From Escherichia phage JY01, in the sequence record OR995200.1: 64,000 nt of DNA. One strand, 5' to 3'. Positions 7,481 through 48,602 of this stretch are shown here, piece after piece. The first letter of the stretch is position 1. Every line of letters begins with the position of its first letter. A program made the translations under genes and the position numbers. Under the pieces are notes generated by a model, which was given only the letters and a program-made list of their open reading frames with translations, was not told the origin of the DNA and ran no database searches.

Positions 7481-7497
7481 CAAAAGGGCCGAAGCCC
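7481..7497 (-). terminator. GGGC-UUCG-GCCC hairpin, bidirectional terminator-like
   Basis: GGGCCGAAGCCCC stem-loop flanked by T-runs on both strands, between the 64-aa ORF and denB. Confidence 0.5.
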
Positions 7498-7503
7498 CTT
7501 ATT

Positions 7504-7698
7504 TTATTTGAATTGTGCAATTCTTTTTTCTAAACACTCTGCGTAAGATTTCATTGAGATGAACTGTGAAAGTAGAAGTTCTTGCTCAACTGCACTAACT
7601 GTTAGAAACTTTGTGCTTTCTAAAAATTTGCTCAGTGCATTAATTTTGAGCATTAATTGATCGTATTCTTCTTTTACTCGTGCTTGATAACCTAACAT
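7504..7698 (-). CDS. Hypothetical protein (64 aa)
   Basis: ORF between rIIB and denB. Predicted helical. Confidence 0.4.
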   Translation of the reverse strand: MLGYQARVKEEYDQLMLKINALSKFLESTKFLTVSAVEQELLLSQFISMKSYAECLEKRIAQFK

Positions 7699-7707
7699 AA
7701 TTTTCCT

Positions 7708-7722
7708 TAGTTAAGGGCCGAA
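7708..7722 (-). other. UUCG-tetraloop RNA hairpin
   Basis: GGGCCGAAGCCC immediately 3' of the rIIB stop. No T-run on the minus strand. Confidence 0.4.
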
Positions 7723-7726
7723 GCCC

Positions 7727-8665
7727 TTATTTAAATTGTTCAGTAACGTCTTCAACTACTTCGTATTGGCAGGTACGCATTTTAGCGTCGTTGTAATCAA
7801 TCGGAATTGATACTACATCACGTGGATGTACTTTAACTTTTACAACTCGGCTGGTTGAACTGCCAAAGTGACGAATATAAGATTTAGAACACACATGCAG
7901 ACCACGAGAACAAGTTTGTGTATCATCATCATTCACACGAGTACGTGGCATTTTAACTACTTTACCCGGACTGTTATCAAAGGTGTTTGAGTGACAGTCA
8001 AAGTAGTTGTCACGAACTACTTTCCAAGCATAGAAGTAACCATCTTCGGTGATTTCAATATCGTTTGCTACCAAGAAATCAAAGAGTCGAGATACCGCTT
8101 TTTGGCTTGGGTTTTCCAGCAGATTTTCCAAGAACGGAAAATAAAATTCAAAGTTTTCGCCTTTTTCCATCGAGTCAAGAATACGATCAACCAAACCAGA
8201 CCGCAATTCAATATTTTGATAGAACAAGCTTCCACCTTCAATTCGAACATCACCGGAAATATATTTTTCAACAGCGCGACGAACATTAATTTTTTGTGCC
8301 GCTTCTTCCAACTTATCTGCTACAAGCAGATTAAGAATTTCCTGGAAGTTTGAATGAGTATTAGGAGTTGCGTTATAAGTTACACCGTCAACAGTAATTG
8401 AAATGAATTTTTTAGAAGCATTCCAAATAATATCAGATTTAGCAACTGGAGCAATAGCTACATCGCTATTAACTTTAACTGTAATATCACCGCTAATAGT
8501 AACTTTAGGGCGTTTAGCTTCTTCAGCATTTTTCAAAACACGACGGATTGTGTCAACCGATACATCCTTCCAATAAGCTAATTCCTGCTGAGTGTAATTA
8601 CCGCTTGAATACAATTTAACAATTTCAGCTTGTTCGTTTTTGGTCAGGCATTTAATATTGTACAT
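7727..8665 (-). CDS. rIIB: rIIB protein
   Basis: 312 aa as in T4 rIIB. Directly downstream of rIIA. Confidence 0.85.
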   Translation of the reverse strand: MYNIKCLTKNEQAEIVKLYSSGNYTQQELAYWKDVSVDTIRRVLKNAEEAKRPKVTISGDITVKVNSDVAIAPVAKSDIIWNASKKFISITVDGVTYNATPNTHSNFQEILNLLVADKLEEAAQKINVRRAVEKYISGDVRIEGGSLFYQNIELRSGLVDRILDSMEKGENFEFYFPFLENLLENPSQKAVSRLFDFLVANDIEITEDGYFYAWKVVRDNYFDCHSNTFDNSPGKVVKMPRTRVNDDDTQTCSRGLHVCSKSYIRHFGSSTSRVVKVKVHPRDVVSIPIDYNDAKMRTCQYEVVEDVTEQFK

Positions 8666-8676
8666 AATTTTCCTTA

Positions 8677-10854
8677 TTAGGCCGCAAGGGCCTTCATAGT
8701 TTTAGCGATTTGGGAAACTTCATCATCACTCAAAGAGTTACGATAACCGATGAAGTCGGAAACAATACGGAATTTCTTGGTAAACTCAGCAACCATTTTA
8801 TCACTATTTTTTGAAGCATTACGTGATAATTCATCAAAGAGATTAGTTACTGTCCAGATATCATGACCGATGGTATCTTTTCCACCATTGAAATACACAC
8901 CGCGTAATGAACTAACCATATTACCAAGTCGTGTATATTCTTCAGAAACTTCATCTGTACTGAAGTACTTCATCATAAAATCTAGTTCAGGATACTTGAT
9001 AATTTTATCAATATATCGTTGAGCTGAACTTGAATAACCTACATACTTATCATAATCTACATCATCAAAAGCATCTACATATAAATCACGCAAAGCTTCA
9101 AAAATACATTGGCACTGACCGAGTTCTTTTACCTTTTTCTGTAAAAGCGGACGAATAACATAAAATTCATTAATGCCAATAAGATTAGCCATACGAATCA
9201 AAATATTCATAGATGGATGACAAAGTGATGTAGTACCATCCATAGAGAAAATATCAGAACGATGCATATACGCTACATAACCAGTAATTTCATCTGCTTC
9301 TGACGTAAGTGTAAATAGTTCCTCTTTTTCCCATCGTCCATCTTTAATTTCAAATTTAAATGCTGTAGCAGCTTTAGGACGAGGAGCTTTACTTTTAACT
9401 ACCTTTGGAATATAGCTTTTAACTAAAGCTTCAATTTCTGACAAATAATGAATGTTAACTTCATCACTTTCAAACATTGCCATAATATCAGGTAGTAAAT
9501 CAATCTGCGATTCTACTTCCGGATTAATAAACAGAAGACGCTCATTGTGATGAATATTTAAAGTGTTATTAAATTCACTATCATCTAACGCATGCGCTAA
9601 TCCACGGACAATATTAACACGATTTTTAATATTATCAATAACGATATTAATTTTTGTTGTATTAATACCAAACAGACGATAACTTGATGCAACGGCTGAA
9701 GTTTCATGGCTTTGCTTAATGCGTTTCAGTCGAGGGTCAAGATTTACTTCATACACAACTCCTGCATTGCATAACTTACTATCAGGTTCAAACATGCTCT
9801 GCATCTTTTTATATGACAGATTTTTAGTCGTGAATTTGACTGAATTACTAATCATATAATCTCGAGCAGAATACCCCATCTTCATCAATTCACGATATGT
9901 GTGACGAGGAGATGTAGATTCTTTAAATCGTTTTACATCTTCATTAAATGCTTTCTCACTGAGTTCTTTAACTCGTTCAATGATATTTTTACGAGTGCGA
10001 TCATCTAGTGAAAGAGCCTCGCGAGATGGAGCAATATCAAGTGAACCCATTGGAAACTTAATGTAATTCACTTCATTGCGAATGCTTAGCCAGTTACGGT
10101 CTCTAATAACACCATCGATAGGATAAACAATACCGCCATAGATAGCATATAATCCACCGCGATCAGGCCAGTATCTTTCTGGATTTACGCCATAATAATC
10201 ATCAAAATCCGGAAAATAATCAATTTCGCGGTCAAGACCATTAATGATAGCCAAATCTTTGAATGGTCGCATGATATAAGAAACTTCATAAGCAAAGTTT
10301 CTAAAGTCTTTTTCTTCAACTGGAACTACGATTTCAATACCAGTTTTATCATTTGGACCCATTTCTTTTACGAATGTAGGTTTAATTTGTGGACCATCGC
10401 CATCCATGTAAGCTACATAACCACGAATTTCACCTTTATGATACGAAGTAATACTAAACGTATCAGTATAACTAAACGGAGATTTAGAACCTAAACCAAA
10501 TCCGCCAATAAAGTCATTAGATTCAGCCTTAGATGAACTGAAATATGAATTATACAGCCCAGGAGAATTATCATCACCCTGAATATCAAAATCACTCATA
10601 CCCGGACCAAAATCTCGACAAACAAATCGTGGATCTAAACGTCCAGGAACTTGAATGATAAATTTTTCAGGATTTCCATTGAGAGCATGGGCATCAATCA
10701 TGTTGGTAATCAATTCACGAACAACTGCGCGAATTTTGTTTGTATACAAATCAGATGACAGAATTTTAAATACTTTAGGAGATGCTGCGATGCTAAATGC
10801 TTTTGATTTAGAACCATTGCCAAGAATTGTTTCTTTTTCAGTGGTGATAATCAT
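8677..10854 (-). CDS. rIIA: rIIA protein
   Basis: 725 aa as in T4 rIIA. N-terminal GHKL-ATPase-like region ([10 protein letters not shown], GxGxG). Confidence 0.9.
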
Positions 10855-10864
10855 AATTTCCTCA

Positions 10865-11068
10865 TTAATTCATATTACGCTTAATAACTTCAGCAACTTC
10901 TAGTAGTTCATCTTTAGTTGCAGTGTCGGATTGAATTTTATCTCTAATATCTTTAAAGCGGTTTTTAAATTCTTCGGCTTCTCCCATATCGAAAAAGCGT
11001 TGAATGATTCTATATTCTCGATGAACTGCTTTATCAAAAAGTTCTAAATTTACTTTATATGATTTCAT
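10865..11068 (-). CDS. Hypothetical protein (rIIA.1 position)
   Basis: 67 aa, ATG start, just upstream of rIIA. Confidence 0.5.
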
Positions 11069-11091
11069 TTCAATATCCTCATTTGCCCAAT

Positions 11092-11123
11092 TAATTATAC
11101 CACATCCTTGTGGTAAAGTAAAC
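11092..11123 (-). promoter_or_regulatory. Early promoter
   Basis: GTTTAC, 17 nt, GTGGTATAAT on the minus strand, upstream of the rIIA.1-position ORF. Confidence 0.5.
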
Positions 11124-12943
11124 TACTGGCTCATCCATTCTTTACGAAGGTCAGCATTATCTCCCATGAGCATTTCAAAAAGATCTTTCCAGTTCTCAGG
11201 AAGTTTAACAACATCATATACTGGATTTTGAATCATCTCACGATATTCAGATTTTTCCAAAGAGCCAAGTCCCTTAATATAACGGATGCTATGTTTAGGT
11301 AGAGCATCTTTAGCACTCTCATATTCAGCGACTGTATAAAACCATTCTTGTTTTTTACCGACCTGGGCGATGATTACAGGAGTTTTGACAAAGCGAATTC
11401 GTCCTTGCTCAAACAATTCTGGCCAATTACTAAAAAATCCAAGAAGAGAAGGATAAATGCTTCCTAGACCATCATGGTCAGCATCAGTCATAATAGCAAT
11501 ATTATGATAATTCAAGTTTTCAGCTTTTTCACCAAGAACTAATCCAGTGATTGCGCAAATATCAAATAGTTCTTTGTTTTTAAGCATATCAGCATATGAC
11601 ATACCCCAACTGTTGAGAACTTTACCGCGCAATGGATAACCACCATGAAGTTCTTTATCACGAACATCAATAAGATATCCGATAGCAGAATCACCCTCAG
11701 TCAAGAAAAGAGTAGTATCAGCATCTTTACCGCAAAGATTCGCTTTGATATGTTTATGAACCTTTGCCTTAGAAGCCTTTTTAGCTGCTTTAGTTTCAGC
11801 TGCTTTTTCTGCTGCCAATTTACGAGCTAGTGCAGCTTCAATAATTGGCATCAGAATTGCTTCATTATTTAGAATAGCGCGTGAAATCTTTTTAGCGTCA
11901 AGTTGAATATGACTACGGATTTCACCAAATGGAGAAGTCAAACGCTCTTTAGTTTGAGAATCAAATCGCATGTTTTTCATATCACGAACAAACATAACGA
12001 TAGTCAAACATTCTTTAACACGTGCTTTAGTTACATCAATTTTGAACTTACGTTTGATTTGTGGAATAAGGTCTTCACAAATATCATCCATAACACAGTC
12101 AATGTGATGACCACCATTCTTAGTATGAATGTTATTGACGTATGTTAATTGACGAAAACCATCCGGTGAACGACCAACCGCAATAGAACAATTTTCTTGT
12201 TCTTGAACAATAGCATGCTCATCATATTGGCGTGCATATTTCTTAAAATTACCCTGAACCTTTTTACCGTTAAAGGTAAATTGAATATCAGGATAAACTA
12301 CTGCAAGTGTCTGGAGACGATCTAGTGTAATGTCAAGATAAACCTGAGATAGCTCATTAGTTTCAAATGACATAAAATCAGGAATGAAAGTAACACGAGT
12401 TCCTTTCCATTTTCCAGGAATATCTTCCCATGATTTATTTTCCATGCCATTTGAACAACGAACTACAATATTATTTTGACCGTCGCCAGTTTCACCGACA
12501 AACATAACAGAAAAAATGTTAGTTAAACTAGAGCCAACACCGTTCATACCGCCAGTGACGCGTTCTTTATCATCGCCGAAGTTACCACCTGCTTTTGGAA
12601 TAGTCCAGGCGGCAACAGGACCAGGAATTTCTTCACCAGTAGGTGTTTTAACCATCGCTTGTGGAATACCACGACCGTTATCTTCAACTGTTACTTGATT
12701 GTTTTTAATAGTAACGTTAATTTTATTTGCGAATTTAAACTTAGTACGAATACCTTCATCTACTGAGTTATCGATAATTTCATCAATAAGCTTAACAAGA
12801 CCAGGTACATACTGAACACTTTCCCATTTACCAAACAGAAAGCGCTCATGCATTTCATTAGCAGAAGAACCAATGTACATGCCGCTACGCTTTTTGATAT
12901 GTTCAATATCGCTCAGAATTTTAATTTCATTCTTAATCATCAC
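11123..12943 (-). CDS. 39: DNA topoisomerase II large subunit (GyrB-like), unsplit 39+60 form
   Basis: 606 aa with GyrB ATPase and TOPRIM regions in one ORF. T4 splits this into gene 39 plus gene 60; here it is continuous. Confidence 0.9.
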   Translation of the reverse strand: MMIKNEIKILSDIEHIKKRSGMYIGSSANEMHERFLFGKWESVQYVPGLVKLIDEIIDNSVDEGIRTKFKFANKINVTIKNNQVTVEDNGRGIPQAMVKTPTGEEIPGPVAAWTIPKAGGNFGDDKERVTGGMNGVGSSLTNIFSVMFVGETGDGQNNIVVRCSNGMENKSWEDIPGKWKGTRVTFIPDFMSFETNELSQVYLDITLDRLQTLAVVYPDIQFTFNGKKVQGNFKKYARQYDEHAIVQEQENCSIAVGRSPDGFRQLTYVNNIHTKNGGHHIDCVMDDICEDLIPQIKRKFKIDVTKARVKECLTIVMFVRDMKNMRFDSQTKERLTSPFGEIRSHIQLDAKKISRAILNNEAILMPIIEAALARKLAAEKAAETKAAKKASKAKVHKHIKANLCGKDADTTLFLTEGDSAIGYLIDVRDKELHGGYPLRGKVLNSWGMSYADMLKNKELFDICAITGLVLGEKAENLNYHNIAIMTDADHDGLGSIYPSLLGFFSNWPELFEQGRIRFVKTPVIIAQVGKKQEWFYTVAEYESAKDALPKHSIRYIKGLGSLEKSEYREMIQNPVYDVVKLPENWKDLFEMLMGDNADLRKEWMSQ

Positions 12944-12991
12944 TTATCCTCGTTTGGTTTCGGGAATATTATACTCCGGTAATCATAAAGC

Positions 12992-13012
12992 TAAAGGCCC
13001 GAAGGCCTTTTA
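12992..13012 (-). other. UUCG-tetraloop RNA hairpin
   Basis: AAGGCCCGAAGGCCTT stem-loop at the 3' end of the lipoprotein gene, upstream of gene 39. Confidence 0.4.
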
Positions 13013-13270
13013 TTTAAAACGGATAGTCGAATCCTTGAAGAATAGACCAGAACATACGGTTCCTTCTACTTTCTGCCCGGTAGGTCCAATAGCGCGAAAT
13101 CCAGTATGTTGGAAATCATTTTCAGAGCAACCGAACCAATTGTATCCAGTGATTTCAATATTAGTAAAACCGCTTGATGACAAAATTTTGGTTGCATTAT
13201 CAGCATCAGTACATCCTGCTAAAGACACTGCTAATACTAATGCTGCGATAGAACGATTAATATATTTCAT
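13010..13270 (-). CDS. Putative lipoprotein (86 aa)
   Basis: Track ORF trimmed to ATG. MKYINRSIAALVLAVSLAGC has a signal peptide and LAGC lipobox. Confidence 0.5.
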   Translation of the reverse strand: MKYINRSIAALVLAVSLAGCTDADNATKILSSSGFTNIEITGYNWFGCSENDFQHTGFRAIGPTGQKVEGTVCSGLFFKDSTIRFK

Positions 13271-13274
13271 AATT

Positions 13275-13646
13275 TCACTCAAATTTAATGGCTTGAAGAA
13301 GACTAATAATTCTCAAGCGACTTCTTTCATCTTTAACTGTAAAAGAAAGAGGGTCACCAGATTTCATAGTGATGATGCATCCAAAATCAAAATCTTCTGT
13401 AACTTCTTCGAAGAAGTCAAATTCTTCATCATAAATTAGAACATTACTCTGAAAGCTGTGAAGAATTTTTCCATCATTTCCAGATGCTGTACTAATCATT
13501 GTAACATTATGACCTTTCATATCTTCAACGATAAATTCGCTTGTAGATATTACTGCATTAATAGAACCGTTCCTATGAATAGCAGAAAATAGATATTTCT
13601 TTTCTTCACCTTCGCGAACACGATATTTCTTACCGATTTTAAACAT
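13275..13646 (-). CDS. Hypothetical protein (123 aa)
   Basis: ATG start in a TAATTATG junction with the upstream small ORF. Confidence 0.45.
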   Translation of the reverse strand: MFKIGKKYRVREGEEKKYLFSAIHRNGSINAVISTSEFIVEDMKGHNVTMISTASGNDGKILHSFQSNVLIYDEEFDFFEEVTEDFDFGCIITMKSGDPLSFTVKDERSRLRIISLLQAIKFE

Positions 13647-13648
13647 AA

Positions 13649-13825: not shown

Positions 13826-13827
13826 AA

Positions 13828-14462: not shown

Positions 14463-14475
14463 TACAATTTCCTCA

Positions 14476-14745: not shown

Positions 14746-14764
14746 TTTATTCTCCAAGTTATTT

Positions 14765-14845: not shown

Positions 14846-14852
14846 TGCAAAT

Positions 14853-15272: not shown

Positions 15273-15281
15273 AATAATTCC

Positions 15282-16322: not shown

Positions 16323-16334
16323 GATGTTTTCCCC

Positions 16335-21418: not shown

Positions 21419-22038
21419 TCAACTACCTCAATATCATAAACTTTAAATGTTCCAAATGAATCGTGTAATTTTTCTTTTGAAATAGAAGTTATTTTATACT
21501 TTCCAATTGGAATCATCCATTCTTGTTCACGCACAATCATCATTAAGTTATCAGTTCTTTCTGAATCTAACCCGTCAGTATCTTCATACGTGTACTTAAA
21601 CTCAGTATTAGGAGAAGAAAGTATAATATCGCTGATATGGTCAGAATAATTAAAAGCTTTATCAGTTTTTAAGCGAAAAATTATTTCAGTGAAATACTCA
21701 AAATAAGAAAAACCACATGCTGTGTGCAAACTAGTAGTAAATGAATCTACCCTGTTCGTTGAAAACACTTCTCCAACTTGTAAATCTTTAATAAGTTCTT
21801 TTGTCGATTTTGATATACCACGATATAATTGATAAGGCGATTTAGTTAAATGCTTTTTAATGATTTTATTCAATTGCCGATGAAGAGCTTCATTCTTTTT
21901 GGCTTCCATACATTGCCAAAGAACAGACTGCTCAAAGTCAGTAAATTTTTCACAGACTTTTTTATACATATCATATTGAAAATCAACGCTTTCAGCTTTT
22001 ATAGATAACTGTTCAACATCTGCAAGATTAATAATCAT
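21415..22038 (-). CDS. modB: ADP-ribosyltransferase ModB candidate
   Basis: 207 aa, same as T4 ModB. Tandem with modA, 4-nt overlap. Confidence 0.6.
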   Translation of the reverse strand: MIINLADVEQLSIKAESVDFQYDMYKKVCEKFTDFEQSVLWQCMEAKKNEALHRQLNKIIKKHLTKSPYQLYRGISKSTKELIKDLQVGEVFSTNRVDSFTTSLHTACGFSYFEYFTEIIFRLKTDKAFNYSDHISDIILSSPNTEFKYTYEDTDGLDSERTDNLMMIVREQEWMIPIGKYKITSISKEKLHDSFGTFKVYDIEVVE

Positions 22039-22061
22039 GATAGCCTCCGTATACTTCAGAA

Positions 22062-22096
22062 GCTATCATATCATCGTTAGAAAGGAAAGTAAACAA
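22062..22096 (-). promoter_or_regulatory. Early promoter
   Basis: GTTTAC and a TATGATA -10-like element on the minus strand, upstream of modB. Confidence 0.4.
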
Positions 22097-24216: not shown

Positions 24217-24240
24217 AAGGAACCCCGAAGGATTCCTTAA
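24217..24240 (-). terminator. Rho-independent terminator downstream of soc
   Basis: AGGAATCCTTCGGGGTTCCT hairpin followed by TTTTTCATTTT on the minus strand. Confidence 0.55.
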
Positions 24241-24520: not shown

Positions 24521-24522
24521 AC

Positions 24523-24663
24523 TTATAATTTAGCGGCTTTCCAGAGTTGTTCAATAATCTCTTGGTCTATTTCTTTAGTTATTTCATTACGTAATAAAGC
24601 AGTAAGGGCTTTCGCCCTTTTCTTATTCAACTTTTTGAGTTGACGTTTATTTAAACGAGACAT
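24523..24663 (-). CDS. Small basic protein (about 46 aa, not in ORF track)
   Basis: MSRLNKRQLKKLNKKRAKALTALLRNEITKEIDQ... ATG overlaps the gene 56 stop (TAATG). Confidence 0.3.
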   Translation of the reverse strand: MSRLNKRQLKKLNKKRAKALTALLRNEITKEIDQEIIEQLWKAAKL

Positions 24664-28434: not shown

Positions 28435-28461
28435 AACAATCTCCTCATTTAACCAACAAGA

Positions 28462-28494
28462 CTACTATACCATAGTCTTGTCAGCTTGTAAACT
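28462..28494 (-). promoter_or_regulatory. Early promoter upstream of dmd
   Basis: GTTTAC, 17 nt, TGGTATAGT on the minus strand. Confidence 0.5.
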
Positions 28495-29929: not shown

Positions 29930-30274
29930 TTAAAAGAATTTAAATTTTTTCTTTGACCTTTTATTAAATGCATCTTGTAGTTGCATTGTAATACATTTTT
30001 CTACATGAGGAGCTAACTCAGCTTTTCTTTCTTGGTCAAGAACAGCAAAGTCCATTACGACTTTTCCATCAACCCAATCTAATTTTGTCACATACACAAT
30101 GTGTGTAGAACCATCTTCTAGTTTAATGACAATCTCCTGGATAACATTTTCCATGGCAGATTTAATTATCTTAAGAGATTCATTAAAAAGACGTTCTTTT
30201 CTTTCTTCTTCCCCCTCCGAAGAGGGGGATTCATCGATAATTTCTAGATCTAAGTCTAAATCATCTTTATTCAT
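29930..30274 (-). CDS. 40: Head vertex assembly chaperone gp40 candidate
   Basis: Between uvsX and 41. The track ORF starts at a GTG inside uvsX; the first ATG gives 114 aa. Start uncertain. Confidence 0.5.
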   Translation of the reverse strand: MNKDDLDLDLEIIDESPSSEGEEERKERLFNESLKIIKSAMENVIQEIVIKLEDGSTHIVYVTKLDWVDGKVVMDFAVLDQERKAELAPHVEKCITMQLQDAFNKRSKKKFKFF

Positions 30275-34287: not shown

Positions 34288-34312
34288 TGTATGAAAAAGG
34301 GACCCGGAGGTC
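34288..34312 (-). terminator. Rho-independent terminator downstream of gene 43
   Basis: GGGACC-UCCG-GGUCCC hairpin followed by a T-run on the minus strand. Confidence 0.55.
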
Positions 34313-34327
34313 CCTAGATTTATTCTA

Positions 34328-37024: not shown

Positions 37025-37040
37025 AGATATTCCTTAGTTT

Positions 37041-37062
37041 ATAGCCCGAGTTATTAGGCTCT
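37041..37062 (-). promoter_or_regulatory. gp43 translational operator hairpin
   Basis: The mRNA reads AGCC-UAAUAACUC-GGGCU immediately 5' of the AAGGA Shine-Dalgarno. The AAUAACUC loop is the known gp43 autoregulatory operator. Confidence 0.55.
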
Positions 37063-37081
37063 TGATATATTATACTCCAAA

Positions 37082-37098
37082 TAAGGGGCCGAAGCCCC
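37082..37098 (-). other. UUCG-tetraloop RNA hairpin
   Basis: GGGGCCGAAGCCCC between the 78-aa ORF and the gene 43 leader. Confidence 0.45.
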
Positions 37099-37104
37099 TT
37101 TGCT

Positions 37105-37341
37105 TTAAATTTCTATTGTACGACGCGATATAACGGACTTGCCATCTTTATTTGTGGTTTTGATAATCGCATGAAATACGCGTTGGCGTGGGTAAACTAA
37201 TCGTTGGAATTCTTTTTGGAATTCTATTTGTTTATCTTCCGGGAGGTCAAAAACTAGTTGGGTAGAAGACAGACCATATGTTTGTTTTAGATTTTCGAAT
37301 ATTAGAAAAGCTTCGGTAAACTGAATCTCTGATTGTGTCAT
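37105..37341 (-). CDS. Hypothetical protein (78 aa) between regA and 43
   Basis: Track ORF trimmed to the ATG with AAGGT Shine-Dalgarno, 10 nt after the regA stop. Confidence 0.45.
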   Translation of the reverse strand: MTQSEIQFTEAFLIFENLKQTYGLSSTQLVFDLPEDKQIEFQKEFQRLVYPRQRVFHAIIKTTNKDGKSVISRRTIEI

Positions 37342-37351
37342 ATAATTTACC

Positions 37352-37720
37352 TTAATTACCAATCGTATATTTAGGAACGAGTTTCCATTCGTGCTTTTGT
37401 TTAAAAGAAATAACTCGGAAGTTATTAGTTAAATCTTTCATAAAAGTTCTTTGTCCAGGAACGATTTCAATTAGTCCCCAATCTTCTAACAGCCATGCAA
37501 TCGAATCACGACGAACTTCATCTTCTTCTGTCATTTCAACTTGGCGACCATCCATACGAAGCATTTCTTTAAAATGAACGATATAGTATAGTCCTTTTTT
37601 CTGAAGAATATGACAGGACTGATACAGAACTTTATCTTTATTATTAGCAATTCCCATACGAGTCAAAGTTTCTTTTACTTTCAGAAAATCTTCAGGTTTT
37701 TTAAGAGTAATTTCAATCAT
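37352..37720 (-). CDS. regA: Translational repressor RegA
   Basis: 122 aa as in T4 RegA. Position downstream of 62. Confidence 0.8.
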   Translation of the reverse strand: MIEITLKKPEDFLKVKETLTRMGIANNKDKVLYQSCHILQKKGLYYIVHFKEMLRMDGRQVEMTEEDEVRRDSIAWLLEDWGLIEIVPGQRTFMKDLTNNFRVISFKQKHEWKLVPKYTIGN

Positions 37721-39246: not shown

Positions 39247-39277
39247 AATTTCCTCATTCAAGTTTTAGTGTAAATTA

Positions 39278-39294
39278 TAAAGGGCCGAAGCCCT
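39278..39294 (-). other. UUCG-tetraloop RNA hairpin between genes 45 and 44
   Basis: GGGCCGAAGCCC followed by a U-rich tract on the minus strand. Attenuator or RNA stability element. Confidence 0.45.
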
Positions 39295-39297
39295 CTA

Positions 39298-39984
39298 TTA
39301 AAAATCGTGGGTAGAATCAGCTTCAAGAGCTACTACATAATTCGCGTGTTCACCTTCAAATTTAGCAGCACCTTGTTTACCTTTTGCCCAGAGCAGAAGT
39401 TTATAATTTCCTGGTTGCATTTTCATATTTGCCATATTGATAATGAAATTAAATGTATTTTCACCATCATAATCACCAAGAGTCAAAGAATATTTAACAC
39501 GGGTCAGAGCAGAATCTTCTACTTTATTAAAACCGTTAATTACGATTTTACCTTCTTTTACCGTGATAGCAATTGTATCAATCTGCAGACCACGAGATAC
39601 ACGCAACAGCTGTTGAAGGTCTTCAGCTTTAATTTCAGTAACAACAGATGCTACTGGGAATGGAATTGGTTTATTAGGAGCAACTACTGTACTCGGATCG
39701 GCTGCTGGCCAAAAAATTGTTGAACGGGCATCAGCAATTTTAATATTTCCATCTTCTGACTGGGAAATTTCTGCATCATCATTAACTAAAGACAGAATAC
39801 CGAGAAAACCATTCAAATCGTAAATTGCTACATCAAAATCAATAGTGTCAGAAATATTTGCTTCCGCATAAGTTGTACCATTAACTGCACGAGTCATAAT
39901 AAATTGACCGGATTTAAGCATAATACCAGAGTTAATAGTAGCGAAATTTTTAAGCAGAGCAGTAGTATCTTTAGACAGTTTCAT
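39298..39984 (-). CDS. 45: Sliding clamp
   Basis: 228 aa as in T4 gp45. Confidence 0.9.
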   Translation of the reverse strand: MKLSKDTTALLKNFATINSGIMLKSGQFIMTRAVNGTTYAEANISDTIDFDVAIYDLNGFLGILSLVNDDAEISQSEDGNIKIADARSTIFWPAADPSTVVAPNKPIPFPVASVVTEIKAEDLQQLLRVSRGLQIDTIAITVKEGKIVINGFNKVEDSALTRVKYSLTLGDYDGENTFNFIINMANMKMQPGNYKLLLWAKGKQGAAKFEGEHANYVVALEADSTHDF

Positions 39985-40429: not shown

Positions 40430-40438
40430 AATACACCT

Positions 40439-40627: not shown

Positions 40628-40682
40628 GTTTTTCCTCCATAGAGATTATACTCTAATAAATTAAAGCATAATCTCTTATAAA

Positions 40683-42625: not shown

Positions 42626-42812
42626 TATCTAAAATGTTGAAGTTAAAAGATACGGCCCAATCAGTGCATACCGTAACCTTTTTAATACAATTATCTTCAA
42701 CCTCTAACGGTTCAAACCAATATTCAATAATTTCTTTATGCCCAATATCATCTTTTACTTCGCATTCAAAATGCTGACTCATCATAACATTTTTAAATTC
42801 ATCAAAAGTCAT
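42549..42812 (-). CDS. Hypothetical protein (46.2 position)
   Basis: 87-aa ORF. ATG overlaps the gene 47 stop. Confidence 0.4.
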   Translation of the reverse strand: MTFDEFKNVMMSQHFECEVKDDIGHKEIIEYWFEPLEVEDNCIKKVTVCTDWAVSFNFNILDNDTPKSLQDMAVSCIKDAYCEVFDI

Positions 42813-43828
42813 TGTGTTGCCTCTACATATAACTGATTTGCATATTGAATAAGTGCTTCGCGATCAGAATCAGTGATGTCTGGAATTGCATTAATGTATT
42901 CTTCCATCAATGTCTGAAGAGATTGAACTTCAACTTCTTCACTATCATCTGACTCAACAGAGTTATCAATCTTTGACACAACTCGTAATGAATGCACAAC
43001 TTTTTCTAGTTCAGATTCGAACTTCGTTAAATTTTTGTCTACTTCAGTTACTATAACACGCACTGATAGATTTGTAAAATCTTTATAGTCAATTTTTCCT
43101 TTAAATGGATAATGAATTCTACGATGCCAGGTAGTATTGTTTGGAATAAATTCCATTCGTTCTGTTTCTGTATCAAACATCCAGAACCCACGAGGGTCAT
43201 TCTCGTCACCTGCAGTTAGTGTCCATGGTGTCCCAATATATCTAACGTTAGCAGCCTCAGAGATAGTATGGAAGTGACCAGACCACACTTCTTTATAAGT
43301 CTTAAGGAAATCAGGTTCAAGACCATGAGATTTCATTCCTTTATAAAAATAAAATCCATTCAGTTCCCAGTGACCAACACAAAAAGAAGCAGATGAAGTT
43401 TTGATGTGTTCAAGAATTTCACCAGTATTTTCTTCACACATCCAAGGAATCAAATCAATCAAACACCCGTCAAAATCTACTGTAGTAGGCTTATCATATA
43501 CTTTAACATTAGGATATTTAGCCAAAAGCTCAGTAGAAGCATTTGGATGCATTACATTTTTGTAGTGAAGATCGTGATTTCCTACAATAGTATGTAGGGT
43601 AATACCAGCATCATCAAGCATTTGAACTATTTCACGAGCAAACTCCATAGTTTTATGCGTGATCGCTTTTCGCACATCAAAAATATCACCGTATTGAATC
43701 CATACCGTAATTCCATTTTTCTTAGAATATTCTATCGCTTGCTTAATTCCATCAATTTGAATACCGCGAATCCACTCATCATCAGCTTTAACGCCTAAAT
43801 GCCAATCACCTAAATTTAAAATTTTCAT
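42809..43828 (-). CDS. 47: Recombination endonuclease subunit (SbcD/Mre11-like)
   Basis: 339 aa as in T4 gp47. N-terminal GDWHLG phosphoesterase motif. Confidence 0.9.
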   Translation of the reverse strand: MKILNLGDWHLGVKADDEWIRGIQIDGIKQAIEYSKKNGITVWIQYGDIFDVRKAITHKTMEFAREIVQMLDDAGITLHTIVGNHDLHYKNVMHPNASTELLAKYPNVKVYDKPTTVDFDGCLIDLIPWMCEENTGEILEHIKTSSASFCVGHWELNGFYFYKGMKSHGLEPDFLKTYKEVWSGHFHTISEAANVRYIGTPWTLTAGDENDPRGFWMFDTETERMEFIPNNTTWHRRIHYPFKGKIDYKDFTNLSVRVIVTEVDKNLTKFESELEKVVHSLRVVSKIDNSVESDDSEEVEVQSLQTLMEEYINAIPDITDSDREALIQYANQLYVEATQ

Positions 43829-43965
43829 ATATCAAGAACCGTCATTGAAATGCAAAATAAAATTATTGAAATAAACCCATCTGGTGTGCTAAAGAACCCA
43901 ATCCAACATGCTCTAGTGAATAGATAAAATGCGAGAAAAAGTATCACATATCCAAGAAATATCAT
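43825..43965 (-). CDS. Small hydrophobic protein (about 46 aa, not in ORF track)
   Basis: MIFLGYVILFLAFYLFTRACWIGFF... Stop overlaps the gene 47 start. GGAG is 12 nt upstream. Confidence 0.3.
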   Translation of the reverse strand: MIFLGYVILFLAFYLFTRACWIGFFSTPDGFISIILFCISMTVLDI

Positions 43966-43989
43966 TATATCAAACTCCGTATAAAGCTA

Positions 43990-44006
43990 AAGGGCCGAAG
44001 CCCTTT
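43990..44006 (-). terminator. UUCG-tetraloop hairpin, terminator-like
   Basis: GGGCCGAAGCCC followed by a T-rich tract on the minus strand at the end of the 400-aa gene. Confidence 0.45.
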
Positions 44007-45207
44007 ATTTTGTAATAATGTCAAACTGTTCTTTAAAACAGAAGCTTGAATCTTGATGCTGATACAAAAATTCATAAGCTTTTTCACGTTCGCGGTCATA
44101 AAGAGCTCGGTCAGATGACAGTTCTTTAATACGTTCAAATGTTGATTCCATATCATTTTCATCAAACCAAATGATACCGCTATCATGCGAGGTCAAAGGA
44201 GTATTATCAACACGGAATTTTAAATTTTCGCCAGTAGATTTCCAAAATACCGGAATTGTTCCACATGCACCAAGCTCGAGATGAGTATATTCTAAAGAAC
44301 GTTGTAGATATTTTTTATCCAACTTACTCAACTGATAACCAAAACCGGATTTACTCATACGTTCAAGCATTTCGCTATTTACATAACGGTCAAGAATTTG
44401 CGTTGGCAAATTAGGAGCAATTTTAATTTGGTCTACTTGATGAAGACGATAATACTCGTATGGAATTCCTTTTTCTTTAATAGGAATGAACGCTGGAGAA
44501 CGTTCCAGACCTTCCATAATAGTACTTAGTCCTGCAGGTTTAAGATGTTTTTCATGAAAATCAAACATCTGATAAAAACCTTTCCATGTAGTCGTACGAC
44601 CAATCCAACGGTTAACATTCATGTTAACTTCAGAAACATCTTTCCAGTAGGTTGACCGAACCTTCGCAATATCCATAGGAGGCTGAAAGTTATATACTGT
44701 CGGTGCTTCTTCAATATCATCAAACAGAGAAACAGTTTCTGGATACCATTCTTTCATCAGAACTTTATTAAAATCGCCATTATCAGAATGGCTAAAAATA
44801 ACATCAGCTCGACGAACAGTTTCTTCTAATCCCAAATTTCGACGCAAAGAAAGAGAAGAATGGTCATGCTGATAAACTACAACACGAACAGAAGGTTTAA
44901 TGTTATCAATAATTTTTTTATAGTTATTAATAGTGTCTTCTTCAACCGAAGTAGCAGGAACTGAATTGATAATTAGAATATCACAATCATTTACCAGCTT
45001 AAGTGTTTTATCGTATTCTTTTGCCAATAAAACCGGAATTGAAAATGATTTATAATCATGCGCACAATTACGAGTAAATGATTTATCTTTAGCATAAACC
45101 AAAGTTACTTCATGACCATTTTTAATAAACCAATCACGTTGCTCAAGAGAAAATTTAGTTACACCACAACCTTCAAGACCTCGAGCCATAAAAATACATA
45201 CTTTCAT
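44005..45207 (-). CDS. agt: Alpha-glucosyltransferase candidate
   Basis: 400 aa, same length and position (between 55 and 47) as T4 a-gt. Not verified by motif. Confidence 0.6.
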   Translation of the reverse strand: MKVCIFMARGLEGCGVTKFSLEQRDWFIKNGHEVTLVYAKDKSFTRNCAHDYKSFSIPVLLAKEYDKTLKLVNDCDILIINSVPATSVEEDTINNYKKIIDNIKPSVRVVVYQHDHSSLSLRRNLGLEETVRRADVIFSHSDNGDFNKVLMKEWYPETVSLFDDIEEAPTVYNFQPPMDIAKVRSTYWKDVSEVNMNVNRWIGRTTTWKGFYQMFDFHEKHLKPAGLSTIMEGLERSPAFIPIKEKGIPYEYYRLHQVDQIKIAPNLPTQILDRYVNSEMLERMSKSGFGYQLSKLDKKYLQRSLEYTHLELGACGTIPVFWKSTGENLKFRVDNTPLTSHDSGIIWFDENDMESTFERIKELSSDRALYDREREKAYEFLYQHQDSSFCFKEQFDIITK

Positions 45208-45261
45208 TTAATATCCTCTTTGTTTTGGTTTATTTTACCAAAAATTTATAAAGCAATATAG

Positions 45262-45276
45262 GAGCCGAAGCTCCTA
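45262..45276 (-). other. UUCG-type RNA hairpin
   Basis: GGAGCCGAAGCTCC stem-loop. Confidence 0.4.
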
Positions 45277-45447
45277 TCCGCATAATACACCGTATAGAGG
45301 CTCATTAGAGCTTCTAAATTTTATACGCTTATATGTTATAGTTCCTTCTGCTTTAGCTTTATCATGAGACTCTTTAAAGCGTCTCATCATTTCCTTTTTA
45401 GAGGAACGAATTTTATTATAATCTATTTCAGAAGTCTGGATGTTCAT
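45274..45447 (-). CDS. Small basic protein (about 57 aa, not in ORF track)
   Basis: MNIQTSEIDYNKIRSSKKEMMRRFKESHDKAKAEG... Starts 4 nt after the upstream stop. Confidence 0.3.
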   Translation of the reverse strand: MNIQTSEIDYNKIRSSKKEMMRRFKESHDKAKAEGTITYKRIKFRSSNEPLYGVLCG

Positions 45448-45450
45448 CTT

Positions 45451-45657
45451 TCATAACTGCCACCATTTTTTGACTTGATAAGAATCAACCCACACTTTCA
45501 TATTAGGGTCTGCTCTTACAATAGGAGGATTAACTTCTTTAATTGAACTATCATGGTATTCTTTTTCAGAAATTTTCACACAAAGATGACCATTCAAAGA
45601 TTCAGTAAATCCTGCATTAATTTTAAGACGCTTGAATTTTACATGTGTAAGCATCAA
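45451..45657 (-). CDS. Hypothetical protein (68 aa)
   Basis: ORF in the 55 to a-gt interval. Start uncertain. Confidence 0.35.
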   Translation of the reverse strand: MMLTHVKFKRLKINAGFTESLNGHLCVKISEKEYHDSSIKEVNPPIVRADPNMKVWVDSYQVKKWWQL

Positions 45658-45940
45658 TCATATCCTCAATCTGCGATCTAGTAGTCTTCCAAAGAATACT
45701 AATAAGTTCATCGTTATATGGCTGTTTTAGAATATCCCGACTTTTCTTGATAGCATATTCGTATTGAGCAAAATTATTATTTTCAGCTGCAATCTGAGCG
45801 TGCTTATAAAGACGATTCAGTTCGCGTTTGTTTTTAGACAATAACTTATTTGCTTTTCTTTCTGCTTCAAGACGGTTCTTTTCTTCAATAGAAGAAATAA
45901 GCTTTTCCACTTCATCATTAATTTCGGGTTTATCAGTCAT
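45623..45940 (-). CDS. Hypothetical protein (105 aa)
   Basis: Helical, charged ORF. Confidence 0.45.
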   Translation of the reverse strand: MTDKPEINDEVEKLISSIEEKNRLEAERKANKLLSKNKRELNRLYKHAQIAAENNNFAQYEYAIKKSRDILKQPYNDELISILWKTTRSQIEDMIDAYTCKIQAS

Positions 45941-45941
45941 A

Positions 45942-46160
45942 TTATTTCTCTAATATAAAATAAAAATCATCATCTGTTAAATGATACCGATAGTTTAATT
46001 CTACACCATTAGATTTAAAAGCGGTATCATACGGATTTTCTGGATCAATATCAATGTCAAGAGCTAAAACTTCCCTGAGATACATTTTAAGTAAATAGGG
46101 AATAGCTTCAACTTCAGGTATTTCTTCCAAGAATCCGGAGAGGTTAATCGTTAGCCTCAT
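45942..46160 (-). CDS. Hypothetical protein (72 aa)
   Basis: ORF directly downstream of gene 55. Confidence 0.45.
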
Positions 46161-46701
46161 ATAAAAAATCCAAACTAGGAGAATCGTCTACAACACTTTT
46201 CTTTTCAGCCCCCGGTGTTCTATAGGTTGATTCTTCGTAATGCGTCATTTTATCATAGATGTCTTGAATAAAAGTTTCATCTACTAACGCAACCATATCG
46301 TCGTCACGGCTGTCATAGACATTGTGAACGAAGTAACTATATTTCTTTGCAACTTCCTTACGTTCTTTTTTAATACGCTGGACGAATGCATTAAAACAAG
46401 CTTGAGTTATATATGCATGTGGGTTTTTATATTTCGTTTCATCAAAATTATGAAGCCCCTTAATAGAAGCTTCTATACCATCTGCAATCATTTCTTGTTT
46501 CCAAGACTGGGTGTATCCTGAAAAGTTGAAACGTTTAGATAAGCCTTCTGCAATAAGCATAATGGCTAATCCGATAGTATCATTCTGACGAACTACTTTA
46601 TTTGGGTCTTTATTATTTGCTAATTCTGTTTTCCAATCAATAATAGCTTGTAAAAGCTCTTTATTGTTTACGTAATTATATTTAGGCTTAGTTTCTGACA
46701 T
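46144..46701 (-). CDS. 55: Late-promoter sigma factor
   Basis: Trimmed to [24 protein letters not shown]... (185 aa as in T4 gp55). AGAGGTGA Shine-Dalgarno. Confidence 0.85.
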
Positions 46702-46728
46702 TTTCACCTCTTAGCTCAATTCATAGAT

Positions 46729-46768
46729 CTATTATATCATAATATTTGAAGATCTATCTTAAAGCATA
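46729..46768 (-). promoter_or_regulatory. Candidate MotA-dependent middle promoter for gene 55
   Basis: Minus strand has a MotA-box-like TATGCTTTA about 12 nt upstream of a TATTAT/TATAAT -10 region. Confidence 0.35.
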
Positions 46769-46779
46769 GAGGATATCAG

Positions 46780-47049
46780 TTATCTAAGTAAACAGTATGC
46801 TTGGAACACTTTCTCCATCATCTTTTTAAATTCATGAATATCTATGTAATGATCATTAATATCAGCGCGATATAAAAAGTCTAAAAACTTTTTATGGGTA
46901 TTAGAATATTTACTTCCAGTTAATTCAGAAACATGGCTTTCCCAATATCCAACACCAGTTTTATTTGGGAAAAATGAAATTTTCATGTATTGGTCAACAT
47001 AGAAAATACCAAAATTTTCAATAGCAATAGAAATATTAATTAATTTCAT
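46780..47049 (-). CDS. Hypothetical protein (89 aa)
   Basis: ORF upstream of gene 55. Confidence 0.4.
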   Translation of the reverse strand: MKLINISIAIENFGIFYVDQYMKISFFPNKTGVGYWESHVSELTGSKYSNTHKKFLDFLYRADINDHYIDIHEFKKMMEKVFQAYCLLR

Positions 47050-47267
47050 ACATTCATCAACTTAGCCGCTTCAAGAGCTGCATCTAGTGAATCAAATTGG
47101 TCAACATATTCAATTAATTCGCCGTAATTAGCGTATAACCACCATTGGCTAAATTCATACTCAAGGATGAATCCGTTTCCTTCAATTTGAGTTAAACCAA
47201 TGCCATTTGTATTTACTTCGTATCCGGCAAGACGCAAATCGTTAATAAGAGATTCGTTCATATTCAT
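47046..47267 (-). CDS. Hypothetical protein (73 aa)
   Basis: Acidic ORF. Stop overlaps the next start. Confidence 0.4.
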   Translation of the reverse strand: MNMNESLINDLRLAGYEVNTNGIGLTQIEGNGFILEYEFSQWWLYANYGELIEYVDQFDSLDAALEAAKLMNV

Positions 47268-47590
47268 ACCTTAGCAATTTTCAGGTCAGCAAATTTTTTC
47301 TTGCGTTGATTTTTCATGCGACGAATAGTTTTATCGGAAATTTCATGCTTTTGATAAGCTTTAGATTCTACACCAAAAGCTTTAACATCAAATTCTGACA
47401 AGATATATTGAACCAACAATTCACGGACAGTATTGCGTCCAATTTTCTGATCATTCTGTTTCATCGTCTGATGAAGTTCTTTTTCCCATTTATCCAAAAT
47501 TTGAGGAGTTACAATATCGCCTTTTTCTAGCAAAGAAACTACTTTATCATATGCGTAAGAATTGATGGCGTTTTTAATTTGAATAGTCAT
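47264..47590 (-). CDS. Hypothetical protein (108 aa)
   Basis: ATG start. Basic C-terminus. Confidence 0.45.
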   Translation of the reverse strand: MTIQIKNAINSYAYDKVVSLLEKGDIVTPQILDKWEKELHQTMKQNDQKIGRNTVRELLVQYILSEFDVKAFGVESKAYQKHEISDKTIRRMKNQRKKKFADLKIAKV

Positions 47591-47629
47591 ACATTATCCT
47601 CAATTGCATTAAAAATTTATTATCCAAAA

Positions 47630-47644
47630 AAGGGCCGAAGCCCT
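47630..47644 (-). terminator. UUCG-tetraloop hairpin terminator
   Basis: GGGCCGAAGCCC followed by CTTTTTT on the minus strand. Confidence 0.5.
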
Positions 47645-47844
47645 TAGCTAAACTTTTTGGCACCCTTCCAGCCTTCATACATCATTGCGGCTGATATTAA
47701 TATTGCTCCTGAGCAACTTGAATATTTGTGATTCCAAAACCAGTTTAGAAAAACTTCGTCATCAATACCTTGTGCTATCATATTTTCAAAGAACTGACGA
47801 CGAGCTTCTGCAATTCGCTGCGATAATTTAGATTCAGGATTCAT
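47644..47844 (-). CDS. Hypothetical protein (66 aa)
   Basis: ORF with ATG start. Confidence 0.4.
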   Translation of the reverse strand: MNPESKLSQRIAEARRQFFENMIAQGIDDEVFLNWFWNHKYSSCSGAILISAAMMYEGWKGAKKFS

Positions 47845-47976
47845 TTAAATTTTCCAATTACCGTTTTCATCAATGAATTTAATCCAGTCATTTACTGACC
47901 ACTTAGTTGTATCGCCTTTTGGAGTAACATTTAAAGTATATAGCCCTTGCTTAAAAAGCATTCGTTTGATATTCAT
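47845..47976 (-). CDS. Small hypothetical protein (43 aa)
   Basis: Track ORF trimmed to the ATG with strong GAGGAAAAT Shine-Dalgarno: MNIKRMLFKQGLYTLNVTPKGDTTKW... Confidence 0.4.
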   Translation of the reverse strand: MNIKRMLFKQGLYTLNVTPKGDTTKWSVNDWIKFIDENGNWKI

Positions 47977-47983
47977 ATTTTCC

Positions 47984-48277
47984 TCAGCTGTAACGATAAC
48001 ACTCGTTTGATTTACGTTTAGCAACTCGTTGAGAAGTATTATAATCAAAATCATCGTCAATGTAAACTGATTTTTTCAACTTTCTTACTTCACCGCGTAA
48101 TTGACGATTTAACTCATCTTTAACTTCTGAATCAATGCCTTTCATTCTACGCCATTTATCTGAGCGAAAAATGTTTTCAACCATATCTTTATGACTTACA
48201 CCGTCTGGAGCTTTACGCTTTCCAAAATAGTCATAATCACGCACTTTTAAGTCTTTACGACGATACGTTTTACCCAT
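47984..48277 (-). CDS. Basic hypothetical protein (97 aa)
   Basis: Track ORF trimmed to MGKTYRRKDLKVRDYDYFGKRK... with AAGGA Shine-Dalgarno. Confidence 0.45.
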   Translation of the reverse strand: MGKTYRRKDLKVRDYDYFGKRKAPDGVSHKDMVENIFRSDKWRRMKGIDSEVKDELNRQLRGEVRKLKKSVYIDDDFDYNTSQRVAKRKSNECYRYS

Positions 48278-48446
48278 GGAGTTTAATTTCCTTAGCAACT
48301 GAACTAAATACAGCACGATCACAAATCATACGTTTGTTCCATTTAATCACAGTATAATGAACATCTAAATCATCGACTGCTGTAACAATAACGATATGTC
48401 CGTTAACACGATAGTACTGGTCAATTTTAATCTCTTTATCAACCAT
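48270..48446 (-). CDS. Small hypothetical protein (58 aa, not in ORF track)
   Basis: MVDKEIKIDQYYRVNGHIVIVTAVDDLDVHYTV... GAGGA Shine-Dalgarno. First gene after the promoter at 48475-48507. Confidence 0.4.
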   Translation of the reverse strand: MVDKEIKIDQYYRVNGHIVIVTAVDDLDVHYTVIKWNKRMICDRAVFSSVAKEIKLHG

Positions 48447-48474
48447 ATCAATTCCTCAAAGGTAATTCATATGT

Positions 48475-48507
48475 TAATAATACCACGGTTTGAACTTCTT
48501 GTAAACA
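48475..48507 (-). promoter_or_regulatory. Early promoter
   Basis: GTTTAC, 17 nt, GTGGTATTATTAAC on the minus strand. Confidence 0.5.
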
Positions 48508-48587
48508 ACTTTGTGAAAATTATTTTAGGGAATGATAAGAAGGGAACGATAGCTTAGAATGGTAATATACAGAATGTAAGAAAGAAA

Positions 48588-48602
48588 GGCCCAGAGGGCC
48601 CG
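48588..48602 (-). terminator. Hairpin terminator downstream of nrdH
   Basis: GGGCCC-UCU-GGGCC stem-loop followed by a U-rich tract on the minus strand. Confidence 0.45.

Follow-up and report, generated by a model that had tools for sequence, protein, structure and literature searches.

The window examined here is a stretch of 64,000 nucleotides of Escherichia phage JY01 (sequence record OR995200.1), taken at its full length, and the subject is a family of short, G+C-rich hairpins, most of them with a UUCG tetraloop, at the boundaries of its genes. A 12-kb piece of the window shares 97.8-98.7% identity with many Tequatrovirus genomes. The whole window is collinear with phage T4, from asiA and motA through rIIB/rIIA, 39, dda, uvsX and 43, and onward through regA-62-44-45, 46/47, a-gt, 55 and nrdD to nrdC.11; its differences from T4 are insertions and deletions (indels), mostly of homing-endonuclease genes. 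On sequence grounds, the window belongs to a T4-like coliphage of the genus Tequatrovirus and covers its early-gene region. Its G+C content is about 34%, the GC skew is negative throughout, and all long open reading frames (ORFs) lie on the minus strand. Since all genes are on this strand, the plus-strand motif GGGCCGAAGCCC reads GGGC-UUCG-GCCC in mRNA. Hairpins are referred to below by their first coordinate, and all of them are on the minus strand.

The exact 12-mer GGGCCGAAGCCC occurs six times, always on the plus strand (7486, 7715, 37086, 39282, 43992, 47632), where 100 dinucleotide-preserving shuffles gave 0.00 expected copies; GGGCNNNNGCCC occurs seven times against 0.07 expected. A search of the transcribed strand for tetraloop hairpins with a perfect stem of at least 4 bp and at least 3 G-C pairs returned 43, of which 11 carry a UUCG loop, compared with 0.13 expected from base composition (P ~7e-19). 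The shuffle counts and the composition test rule out a chance or compositional artefact. A 12th UUCG hairpin (24217, after soc) contains one G.U pair, and four members with variant loops, 3256 (CUCG), 34298 (UCCG), 24604 (GAAA) and 48587 (UCU triloop), bring the family to 16. All 16 are sense-oriented and 14 are at cistron boundaries; the UUCG sites divide into ten between ORFs and two inside ORFs (5060, 30210). Stems at the 12 UUCG sites are 4-9 bp long, perfect or G.U-containing, with a C-G closing pair around the UUCG. An energy-ranked hairpin list supplied positions, tails and ORF context only, and neither loop identity nor folding energy was taken from it. An Rfam 15 scan of the entire window, both strands, gave no matches at the gathering score; no Rfam family covers the motif, which is why it was flagged by an annotation-free reading.

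That reading, a preliminary description made from the letters alone, had proposed a family of UUCG-tetraloop hairpins at gene boundaries, and the six exact copies where none were expected bear it out. All nine kilobase positions that it listed hold a G+C-rich hairpin. RNA folding of each site, which it had suggested as a check, predicted the expected stem-loop at all of them in the minimum-free-energy structure of 46-61-nt segments, with nearest-neighbour energies from -10.8 to -20.8 kcal/mol. Its count of at least ten copies holds, although the family is larger, also including the UUCG hairpins 5060, 24217, 30210 and 60918 and the GAAA hairpin 24604. The span of 7481 to 48602 that it gave is too narrow, as members extend to 3256, 5060 and 60918. 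Two of its variant loops can be assigned: "CGGA" is 34298 (UCCG in the RNA sense), and "GAGG" is 3256 (CUCG), which lies outside that span. Its placement at 3' ends or between genes is right for most members but not for 5060, which encodes the last residues of Stp, or for 30210, inside gene 40.

The description had also stated that only some hairpins are followed by a U-run, and this agrees with a combination of scan rule and inspection: seven of the 16 have at least five U in the 8 nt directly after the G+C-rich stem-loop (3256, 7483, 24217, 34298, 47630, 48587, 60918) and nine do not (5060, 7712, 12993, 24604, 30210, 37083, 39281, 43988, 45258). Three of the first group are predicted terminators of the type found in PeSLs, which, like PmSLs, are composite terminator-promoter cassettes of T4-like phages (Arbiol 2010, PMC2839356; Comeau 2014, PMC4122927). 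The hairpin at 3256-3277, AGGGAGAGC-CUCG-GCUCUCCCU, with a predicted energy of -20.8 (z -5.2), is followed by a run of seven U at the motA.1/motA boundary and, 34 nt downstream, by an early-promoter consensus, TTTACA-N17-TACTAT (3222-3194). The second, AGGGACC-UCCG-GGUCCCU at 34298-34315, has a U-run and lies after gene 43 (DNA polymerase), with early-promoter consensus sequences downstream. The third, AGGGAGCC-UUCG-GGCUCCCU at 60918-60937, has a run of six U at the nrdC.11/nrdC.10 boundary and the consensus 31 nt downstream. The hairpin after soc (24217-24238; AAGGAAUCC-UUCG-GGGUUCCUU, U-run) has the consensus 16 nt downstream and, relative to T4, a compensatory C-G to A-U change. After nrdH, the triloop hairpin that the description placed at 48.6 kb (48587-48601; GGGCCC-UCU-GGGCCU, z -3.6) has a U-rich tail and the consensus 82 nt downstream. 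The remaining two are the terminator-like AAGGGGC-UUCG-GCCCUUU at the denB.1/denB boundary (7483-7500), followed by the U-rich tail UGUUUU, and AAGGGC-UUCG-GCCCUU at the 55.3/55.2 boundary (47630-47645), followed by a U run and then by GGAUAAUAAA, which fits the RegB consensus.

Among the hairpins that lack a U-run, four precede middle promoters. At the 39.1/39 boundary, the 13.0-kb site of the description (12993-13010; AAAGGCC-UUCG-GGCCUUU) merges through its 3' arm into UUUAGCUUUA, a MotA-like box separated by 12 nt from a downstream TATAAT. The hairpin at the a-gt/47.1 boundary (43988-44007; UAAAGGGC-UUCG-GCCCUUUA) has a stop codon in its 5' arm and overlaps the same box with its 3' arm, again followed by 12 nt and TATAAT, corresponding to T4 P47. 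The 45.27-kb site (45258-45277; AUAGGAGC-UUCG-GCUCCUAU) abuts the MotA box AUUGCUUUA, with 11 nt and then TAAAAT (T4 PmobB/Pa-gt.1). These three thus share a Mot-like box WGCTTTA at a spacing of 11-12 nt from TATAAT or TAAAAT. At regA/43 (37083-37100; AAGGGGC-UUCG-GCCCCUU), the -10 box TATAAT of the gene 43 middle promoter starts 8 nt downstream. A MotA box for this promoter within the hairpin DNA itself (the GCUU in GGGC-UUCG) was considered and rejected, as no register gives a distance of 12 +/- 1 bp to TATAAT.

The other hairpins of this group stand before ribosome-binding sites or within genes. At 5060-5075, GGCGUC-UUCG-GACGCC codes for the C-terminal GVFGRQ of the 26-residue Stp, with the Shine-Dalgarno sequence (SD) and ATG of the next cistron 12 nt downstream. 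At 7712-7729, the 5' arm of UAAGGGC-UUCG-GCCCUUA contains the rIIB stop codon, and 13 nt downstream come the SD and ATG of the following ORF; neither of these two sites has a promoter before the next start. The boundary of gene 45 (sliding clamp) with gene 44 carries AUAGAGGGC-UUCG-GCCCUUUAU (39277-39298, z -4.15; also positioned at 39281), with the stop codon in its 5' arm and a weak tail, AAUUUACA. The GNRA-loop hairpin AAGGGC-GAAA-GCCCUU (24604-24619) lies between gene 56 and soc in the segment that replaces T4 segF, and UCCCCCUC-UUCG-GAGGGGGA (30210-30229) lies within gene 40, 37 nt past the uvsX stop codon.

The presence of a U-run is associated with the class of downstream signal. The early-promoter consensus stands 16-88 nt downstream of five of the seven U-run hairpins (3256, 24217, 34298, 48587, 60918). 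All five hairpins that precede TTTACW-N17-TAYWAT have a U-run, compared with none of the eight directly before a MotA-type promoter or an SD (Fisher P = 0.0008); the ninth hairpin without a U-run is 30210, inside gene 40. Across the whole window, TTTACW-N16-18-TAYWAT, the T4/PST early-promoter consensus, is matched 16 times, always in the sense orientation. A generic sigma-70 scan gave no excess over shuffles (72-96 found, 80-88 expected). The sequences 3' of 3256, 34298, 48590 (the triloop site) and 60918 recur, with 74-96% identity, at 3-10 further loci in T4.

Mapped T4 middle transcripts begin downstream of the corresponding hairpins. The starts of P39 (5349), P47 (36576), PmobB (38682) and P43 (29933) lie 19-33 nt past the orthologous T4 hairpins (5381, 36607, 38715 and 29952, respectively); for the orthologues of 12993, 43988 and 45258 the distance is 31-33 nt, with P39 at about 32 nt. 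The hairpins are therefore part of the upstream RNA and not of the middle transcript.

The T4 C(UUCG)G hairpin class was reportedly described by Tuerk and colleagues in 1988 and is said to be summarised in the 2003 review by Miller and colleagues. The T4 motif was the source of the first recognition of the UUCG tetraloop as an exceptionally stable RNA. The hairpins of the window share with it the phage group, the C(UUCG)G hexamer, short G+C-rich inverted repeats and the intercistronic, sense-strand position. Ten of the 12 UUCG sites were compared base by base and all are orthologous to T4 hairpins; six are identical throughout the hairpin, and four differ by one or two bases missing from a G/C run of the stem in the T4 RefSeq sequence. 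The other two, 24217 and 30210, also match listed T4 hairpins, and we see no essential difference between the two sets. The motif itself is thus already known, and its detection in the window is a correct rediscovery of the T4 hairpins, which the preliminary description did not identify as such. In the available text of the papers concerned, T4 CUUCGG hairpins are said to be numerous and mainly intergenic and to halt reverse transcriptase (PMC8948821, which cites Tuerk 1988), a role in stability or processing other than termination is assigned to them (bioRxiv 10.1101/2022.08.31.505936; PMC8948821; PMC1702504), and Uzan's group describes the UUCG tetraloop as "often" present in intergenic stem-loops such as terminators (PMC1702504). 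The suggestion that members without a U-run may be stability or processing elements agrees with this published view and fits their anatomy, as they stand directly 5' of T4-mapped middle promoters, ribosome-binding sites or RegB motifs.

The T4 RefSeq genome (NC_000866) lacks one or two stem bases at five sites in all, four UUCG and one UCCG, corresponding to 7483-7500, 7712-7729, 34298-34315, 39277-39298 and 47630-47645 of the window; at 45/44, for example, it reads GGGCTTCGG-CC. Both T4 "wild" (KJ477684), which was resequenced by next-generation methods, and the window phage have complete, symmetric stems at the three sites checked. The missing bases are probably gel-compression errors in the old T4 reference, in which case T4 would have about 22 perfect UUCG hairpins and not 18.

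There are further differences from T4. Gene 39 (topoisomerase; 11123-12943, minus strand) is a single 606-codon ORF, and this region of the window lacks the division into genes 39 and 60 seen in T4, together with mobA and the translational bypass of 50 nt; the take-off hairpin of the T4 gene 60 bypass is also a UUCG hairpin (T4 2837-2854). Compared with T4, the window further lacks dam, mobC, mobD and the I-TevII-bearing nrdD intron, and the segA/b-gt segment is replaced.

Orientation and conservation both bear on whether selection acts on RNA or on DNA. A perfect palindrome is symmetric in DNA, so that only the loop distinguishes the strands, and the ratio of sense to antisense UUCG is 12:0 in the window, 18:0 in the T4 reference, where the two plus-strand copies follow the plus-strand late genes 23 and 37, and 61:3 in 80 UvsX-anchored loci of T4-like phages from IMG/VR. 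When 15 sites were aligned with 60 nt of context, only the columns of the C(UUCG)G core were invariant or near-invariant, and mean column identity was 45%. Stems vary between sites (GGGC, GGCC, GGAGC, GGCGUC, GGGAGCC, CCCCCUC) and flanks are unrelated; with only the core in common, the sites are independent instances of a structural motif and not copies of a longer repeat. A dispersed repeat or mobile element (REP- or MITE-like) was rejected as an explanation for the whole family, as the flanks fail to align across the 15 sites.

The 45/44 boundary was followed through loci anchored on gp45, with 54-100% identity over the whole protein and 52-100% over the C-terminal anchor. A hairpin of -9.1 to -14.8 kcal/mol is present in all 14 loci that reach the boundary, built from seven different stems with UUCG, UUUG, UACG or GAAA loops. 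In a loop-centred alignment of these hairpins, six of seven pairs have changed on each side of the stem, and pairing holds in 96.8% of cells but in 57-62% after a one-column shift of the 3' partner. The regA/43 boundary behaves likewise, with UUCG, CGUG, UCCG, UUAC and GAAA loops across relatives. Of 23 loci sampled at 63% UvsX identity or more, 22 have a hairpin of -10.8 kcal/mol or lower at 4-63 nt past the uvsX stop codon, whereas in random 126-nt windows of the same loci the best simple hairpin has a median of -3.7 and 5% reach -10. After denB.1, a hairpin is kept at about 51% RIIB identity with the inverted stem AAAGCCC-UUCG-GGGCUUU. Among the UvsX-anchored loci, UUCG is the commonest loop down to about 60% UvsX identity, with GAAA second at 60-94%, and the loop preference fades in the most distant relatives. 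Retention of a stable hairpin while stem and loop class change points to selection on RNA structure.

We consider it likely that the family represents the C(UUCG)G tetraloop hairpins known from T4-type phages, that its members act at the RNA level, and that their flanks decide between a role as terminator and one as 3' anchor. Motif identity, strand, position, predicted stability and structural conservation come directly from the analysis; we infer the split into terminators and stabilisers and the link to RegB. The hairpins would be short, very stable sense-strand stem-loops at the 3' ends of cistrons in prereplicative (early and middle) units, with the flanking sequence setting the role of each. 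A hairpin with a U-run would be an intrinsic terminator that insulates one early unit from the next, as in the PeSL arrangement. Where there is no U-run and a MotA promoter or ribosome-binding site follows, most RNA polymerases would probably pass, and the eight hairpins directly before such signals are probably read-through-permissive 3' barriers. Read-through would keep open the route to the middle genes by extension of early transcripts, and a hairpin without a U-run could serve as a stable 3' anchor against 3'-5' exonucleases after a cut downstream, for example by RegB at GGAG or GGAU. It is known that RNA polymerase reaches the middle genes in part by extending early transcripts (Hinton 2010), a route with which a non-terminating hairpin is consistent.

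In the portion of the literature available, RegB is described as cutting GGAG or GGAU in early intergenic regions, including T4 orf 55.2 (GGAU) and 47.1 (GGAG, moderately). RegB motifs lie 6-34 nt past hairpin 47630 and 13 nt past 43988; the upstream product of cleavage at either place would end in the hairpin. A block to 3' exonucleases by the hairpin would be expected from general knowledge of PNPase and RNase II.

Several points weigh against this interpretation. Which hairpins terminate, and how efficiently, is judged from U-runs, and a literature search for Term-seq or 3'-end maps of T4 found nothing usable. The tail of 39281 is borderline (UUUAUAAUUU), and this hairpin could be a weak terminator. 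The covariation alignment was centred on hairpins picked in each sequence and is biased towards pairing, and for 5060 and 30210, within coding sequence, protein-coding constraint could explain part of the conservation. The RegB link draws on two published T4 sites, and the exact GGAU cleaved at 55.2 is unconfirmed.

The strongest of the alternatives, which we nevertheless regard as unlikely, is that all members are intrinsic terminators or attenuators of graded efficiency and have no separate role in stability or processing. Their G+C-rich stems with a hyperstable UUCG loop suit it, as do the U-rich 3' arms or tails at the non-U-run sites 39281 (UUUAUAAUUU), 43988 (UUUAGCUUUA) and 12993 (UUUAGCUUUAU). 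PeSL/PmSL cassettes are built on the principle of a terminator directly 5' of a promoter, and in a published reporter assay PeSL stem-loops matched rrnB T1 in termination. However, the sequence after 5060, 7712 and 30210 is purine-rich, with 0-1 U in 8 nt; ac, denB.1 and 40/41 have no promoter of their own in the gap and need read-through, and an efficient stop at every hairpin would block the extension of early transcripts (Hinton 2010).

Seven members share with intrinsic terminators of Escherichia coli a G+C-rich stem, a stable tetraloop and a U tract; nine members have no U tract, and two of the 16 (5060, 30210) lie within coding sequence. UUCG loops are reportedly over-represented in E. 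coli terminators, a finding attributed to d'Aubenton-Carafa and colleagues (1990). The REP/BIME elements of E. coli and the 3' hairpins that RNase III leaves in early mRNAs of phage T7 block 3'-5' exonucleases and set how stable the upstream cistron is, a mode of action that the hairpins of the window would share. A REP element, however, is an imperfect palindrome of some 35 nt whose sequence is conserved, and RNase III sites in T7 are long duplexes, about 20 bp or more, with interruptions. In contrast, the stems in the window, at 4-9 bp plus a tetraloop, are too short for RNase III and have no extended conserved sequence. RNase III needs longer stems than these, and RNase III processing sites were ruled out on that basis.

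The PeSL definition (stem-loop, early sigma-70-like promoter, SD and ATG) fits five of the 16 hairpins, 3256, 24217, 34298, 48587 and 60918, each with a stem-loop, a U-run and TTTACW-N17-TAYWAT, the exact PST/T4-type consensus; it does not fit the other 11. Hairpins 12993, 43988 and 45258 resemble the PmSLs of phage nt-1, with a stem-loop followed by a Mot box (TGCTT) and a -10 box at the proper spacing, and the remaining eight have no attached promoter. In the available portions of the PeSL papers the UUCG loop goes unmentioned and the stress is on recombination and not on RNA function; PmSLs are reported there in nt-1, and we found none reported for the T4 group.

A role at the DNA level is less probable still. 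Under it, the hairpins would be the conserved parts of mobile PeSL/PmSL cassettes, providing homologies for recombination and for gene insertion, deletion or swap. PeSLs are documented points of recombination, with one crossover mapped inside the loop, the sequences 3' of 3256, 34298, 48590 and 60918 recur elsewhere in T4, and three of about 20 breakpoints between the window and T4 lie less than 60 nt from a hairpin where about 0.75 would be expected. Against this, gene-boundary indels are tolerated anyway, the common core is just 12-16 nt, and the flanks of promoter-less members are unrelated. Strict sense orientation of UUCG and the maintenance of pairing by compensatory changes are both unexpected for a homology patch. 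As a DNA role explains neither the loop asymmetry nor the compensatory changes, we treat it as a side effect.

Three indels adjoin hairpins. A 245-bp insertion relative to T4 (37101-37351), with an extra 85-codon ORF (37105-37362), begins at the 5' edge of 37083; T4 mobB is absent, the junction (45198-45223) lying 35 nt 3' of hairpin 45258; and T4 segF is replaced by a short segment (24521-24662) that contains the GAAA hairpin 24604. These are consistent with cassette shuffling at PeSL/PmSL sites, although the numbers are small (three of about 20).

Scarcely credible is a role as operators or in translational control, whether as RegA, gp43 or gp32 sites or as structures masking ribosome-binding sites: the hairpins lie 12-58 nt 5' of start codons, and the gene cluster codes for the translational repressors RegA and gp43, but no predicted fold pairs a hairpin with the SD or AUG that follows it, gp43 has a known operator in another hairpin, closer to the AUG and with UAAC in its loop, the four hairpins 5' of mapped middle starts are not part of the main mRNA from which the downstream gene is translated, and stems and loops turn over freely among relatives, unlike those of a sequence-specific operator. 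A hairpin that matches the described gp43 operator, GAGCCUAAUAACUCGGGCU (37040-37060, minus strand), lies between the P43 -10 box and the start of gene 43; it is not the UUCG hairpin, which stands about 25 nt farther upstream.

Three longer hairpins outside the family (about -15 to -18 kcal/mol; minus strand) embed expression signals and could mask ribosome-binding sites on read-through RNA. At 40641-40676, just 5' of a 45.2-like ORF (T4 P45.2), the -10 region (TATAAT) of a promoter is base-paired with the MotA box (TTATGCTTTA) of the same promoter; at 28451-28486, the spacer and -10 box of an early-promoter consensus lie inside the hairpin, 5' of a dmd-like ORF; and at 22036-22070 the hairpin spans an ATG start.

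Two of the hairpins before middle promoters adjoin a further element. After 12993 (12968-12990) and 37083 (37062-37082), on the minus strand, the sequence GGAGUAUAAU contains both a GGAG and the middle-promoter -10 box. Its positions 6, 8 and 11 are A, as in the 11-nt RegB/S1 consensus GGAGAAUAAAA, and the -10 box may double as a putative RegB site on read-through transcripts.

To the interpretation as C(UUCG)G hairpins whose flanks decide their role, we tentatively add a reading of U-run status as a punctuation code set by the class of downstream promoter. In such a code, a U-run with an early promoter would be a full stop, and the lack of a U-run before a MotA promoter or ribosome-binding site a comma, at which early transcripts extend and yet a hyperstable 3' end forms after cleavage of the read-through RNA a short way downstream. 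The GGAGUAUAAU segments at 12993 and 37083 would each have a triple use, as 3' anchor, nuclease site and promoter, the -10 box serving as an A-rich RegB recognition element on read-through RNA. This combination of rule and triple use is a modest idea, less likely than not to hold, and the one for which we found neither statement nor test in the literature consulted.

As a discovery, the family has little significance, and its practical value is modest. The analysis provides a site-by-site hairpin map for phage JY01. Should the rule linking U-runs to promoter class hold, it could guide the annotation of terminators and stabilisers and the design of synthetic T4 genomes. For the T4-like phages more widely, the 45/44, regA/43 and post-uvsX hairpins are kept by structure, and not by sequence, across distant relatives.

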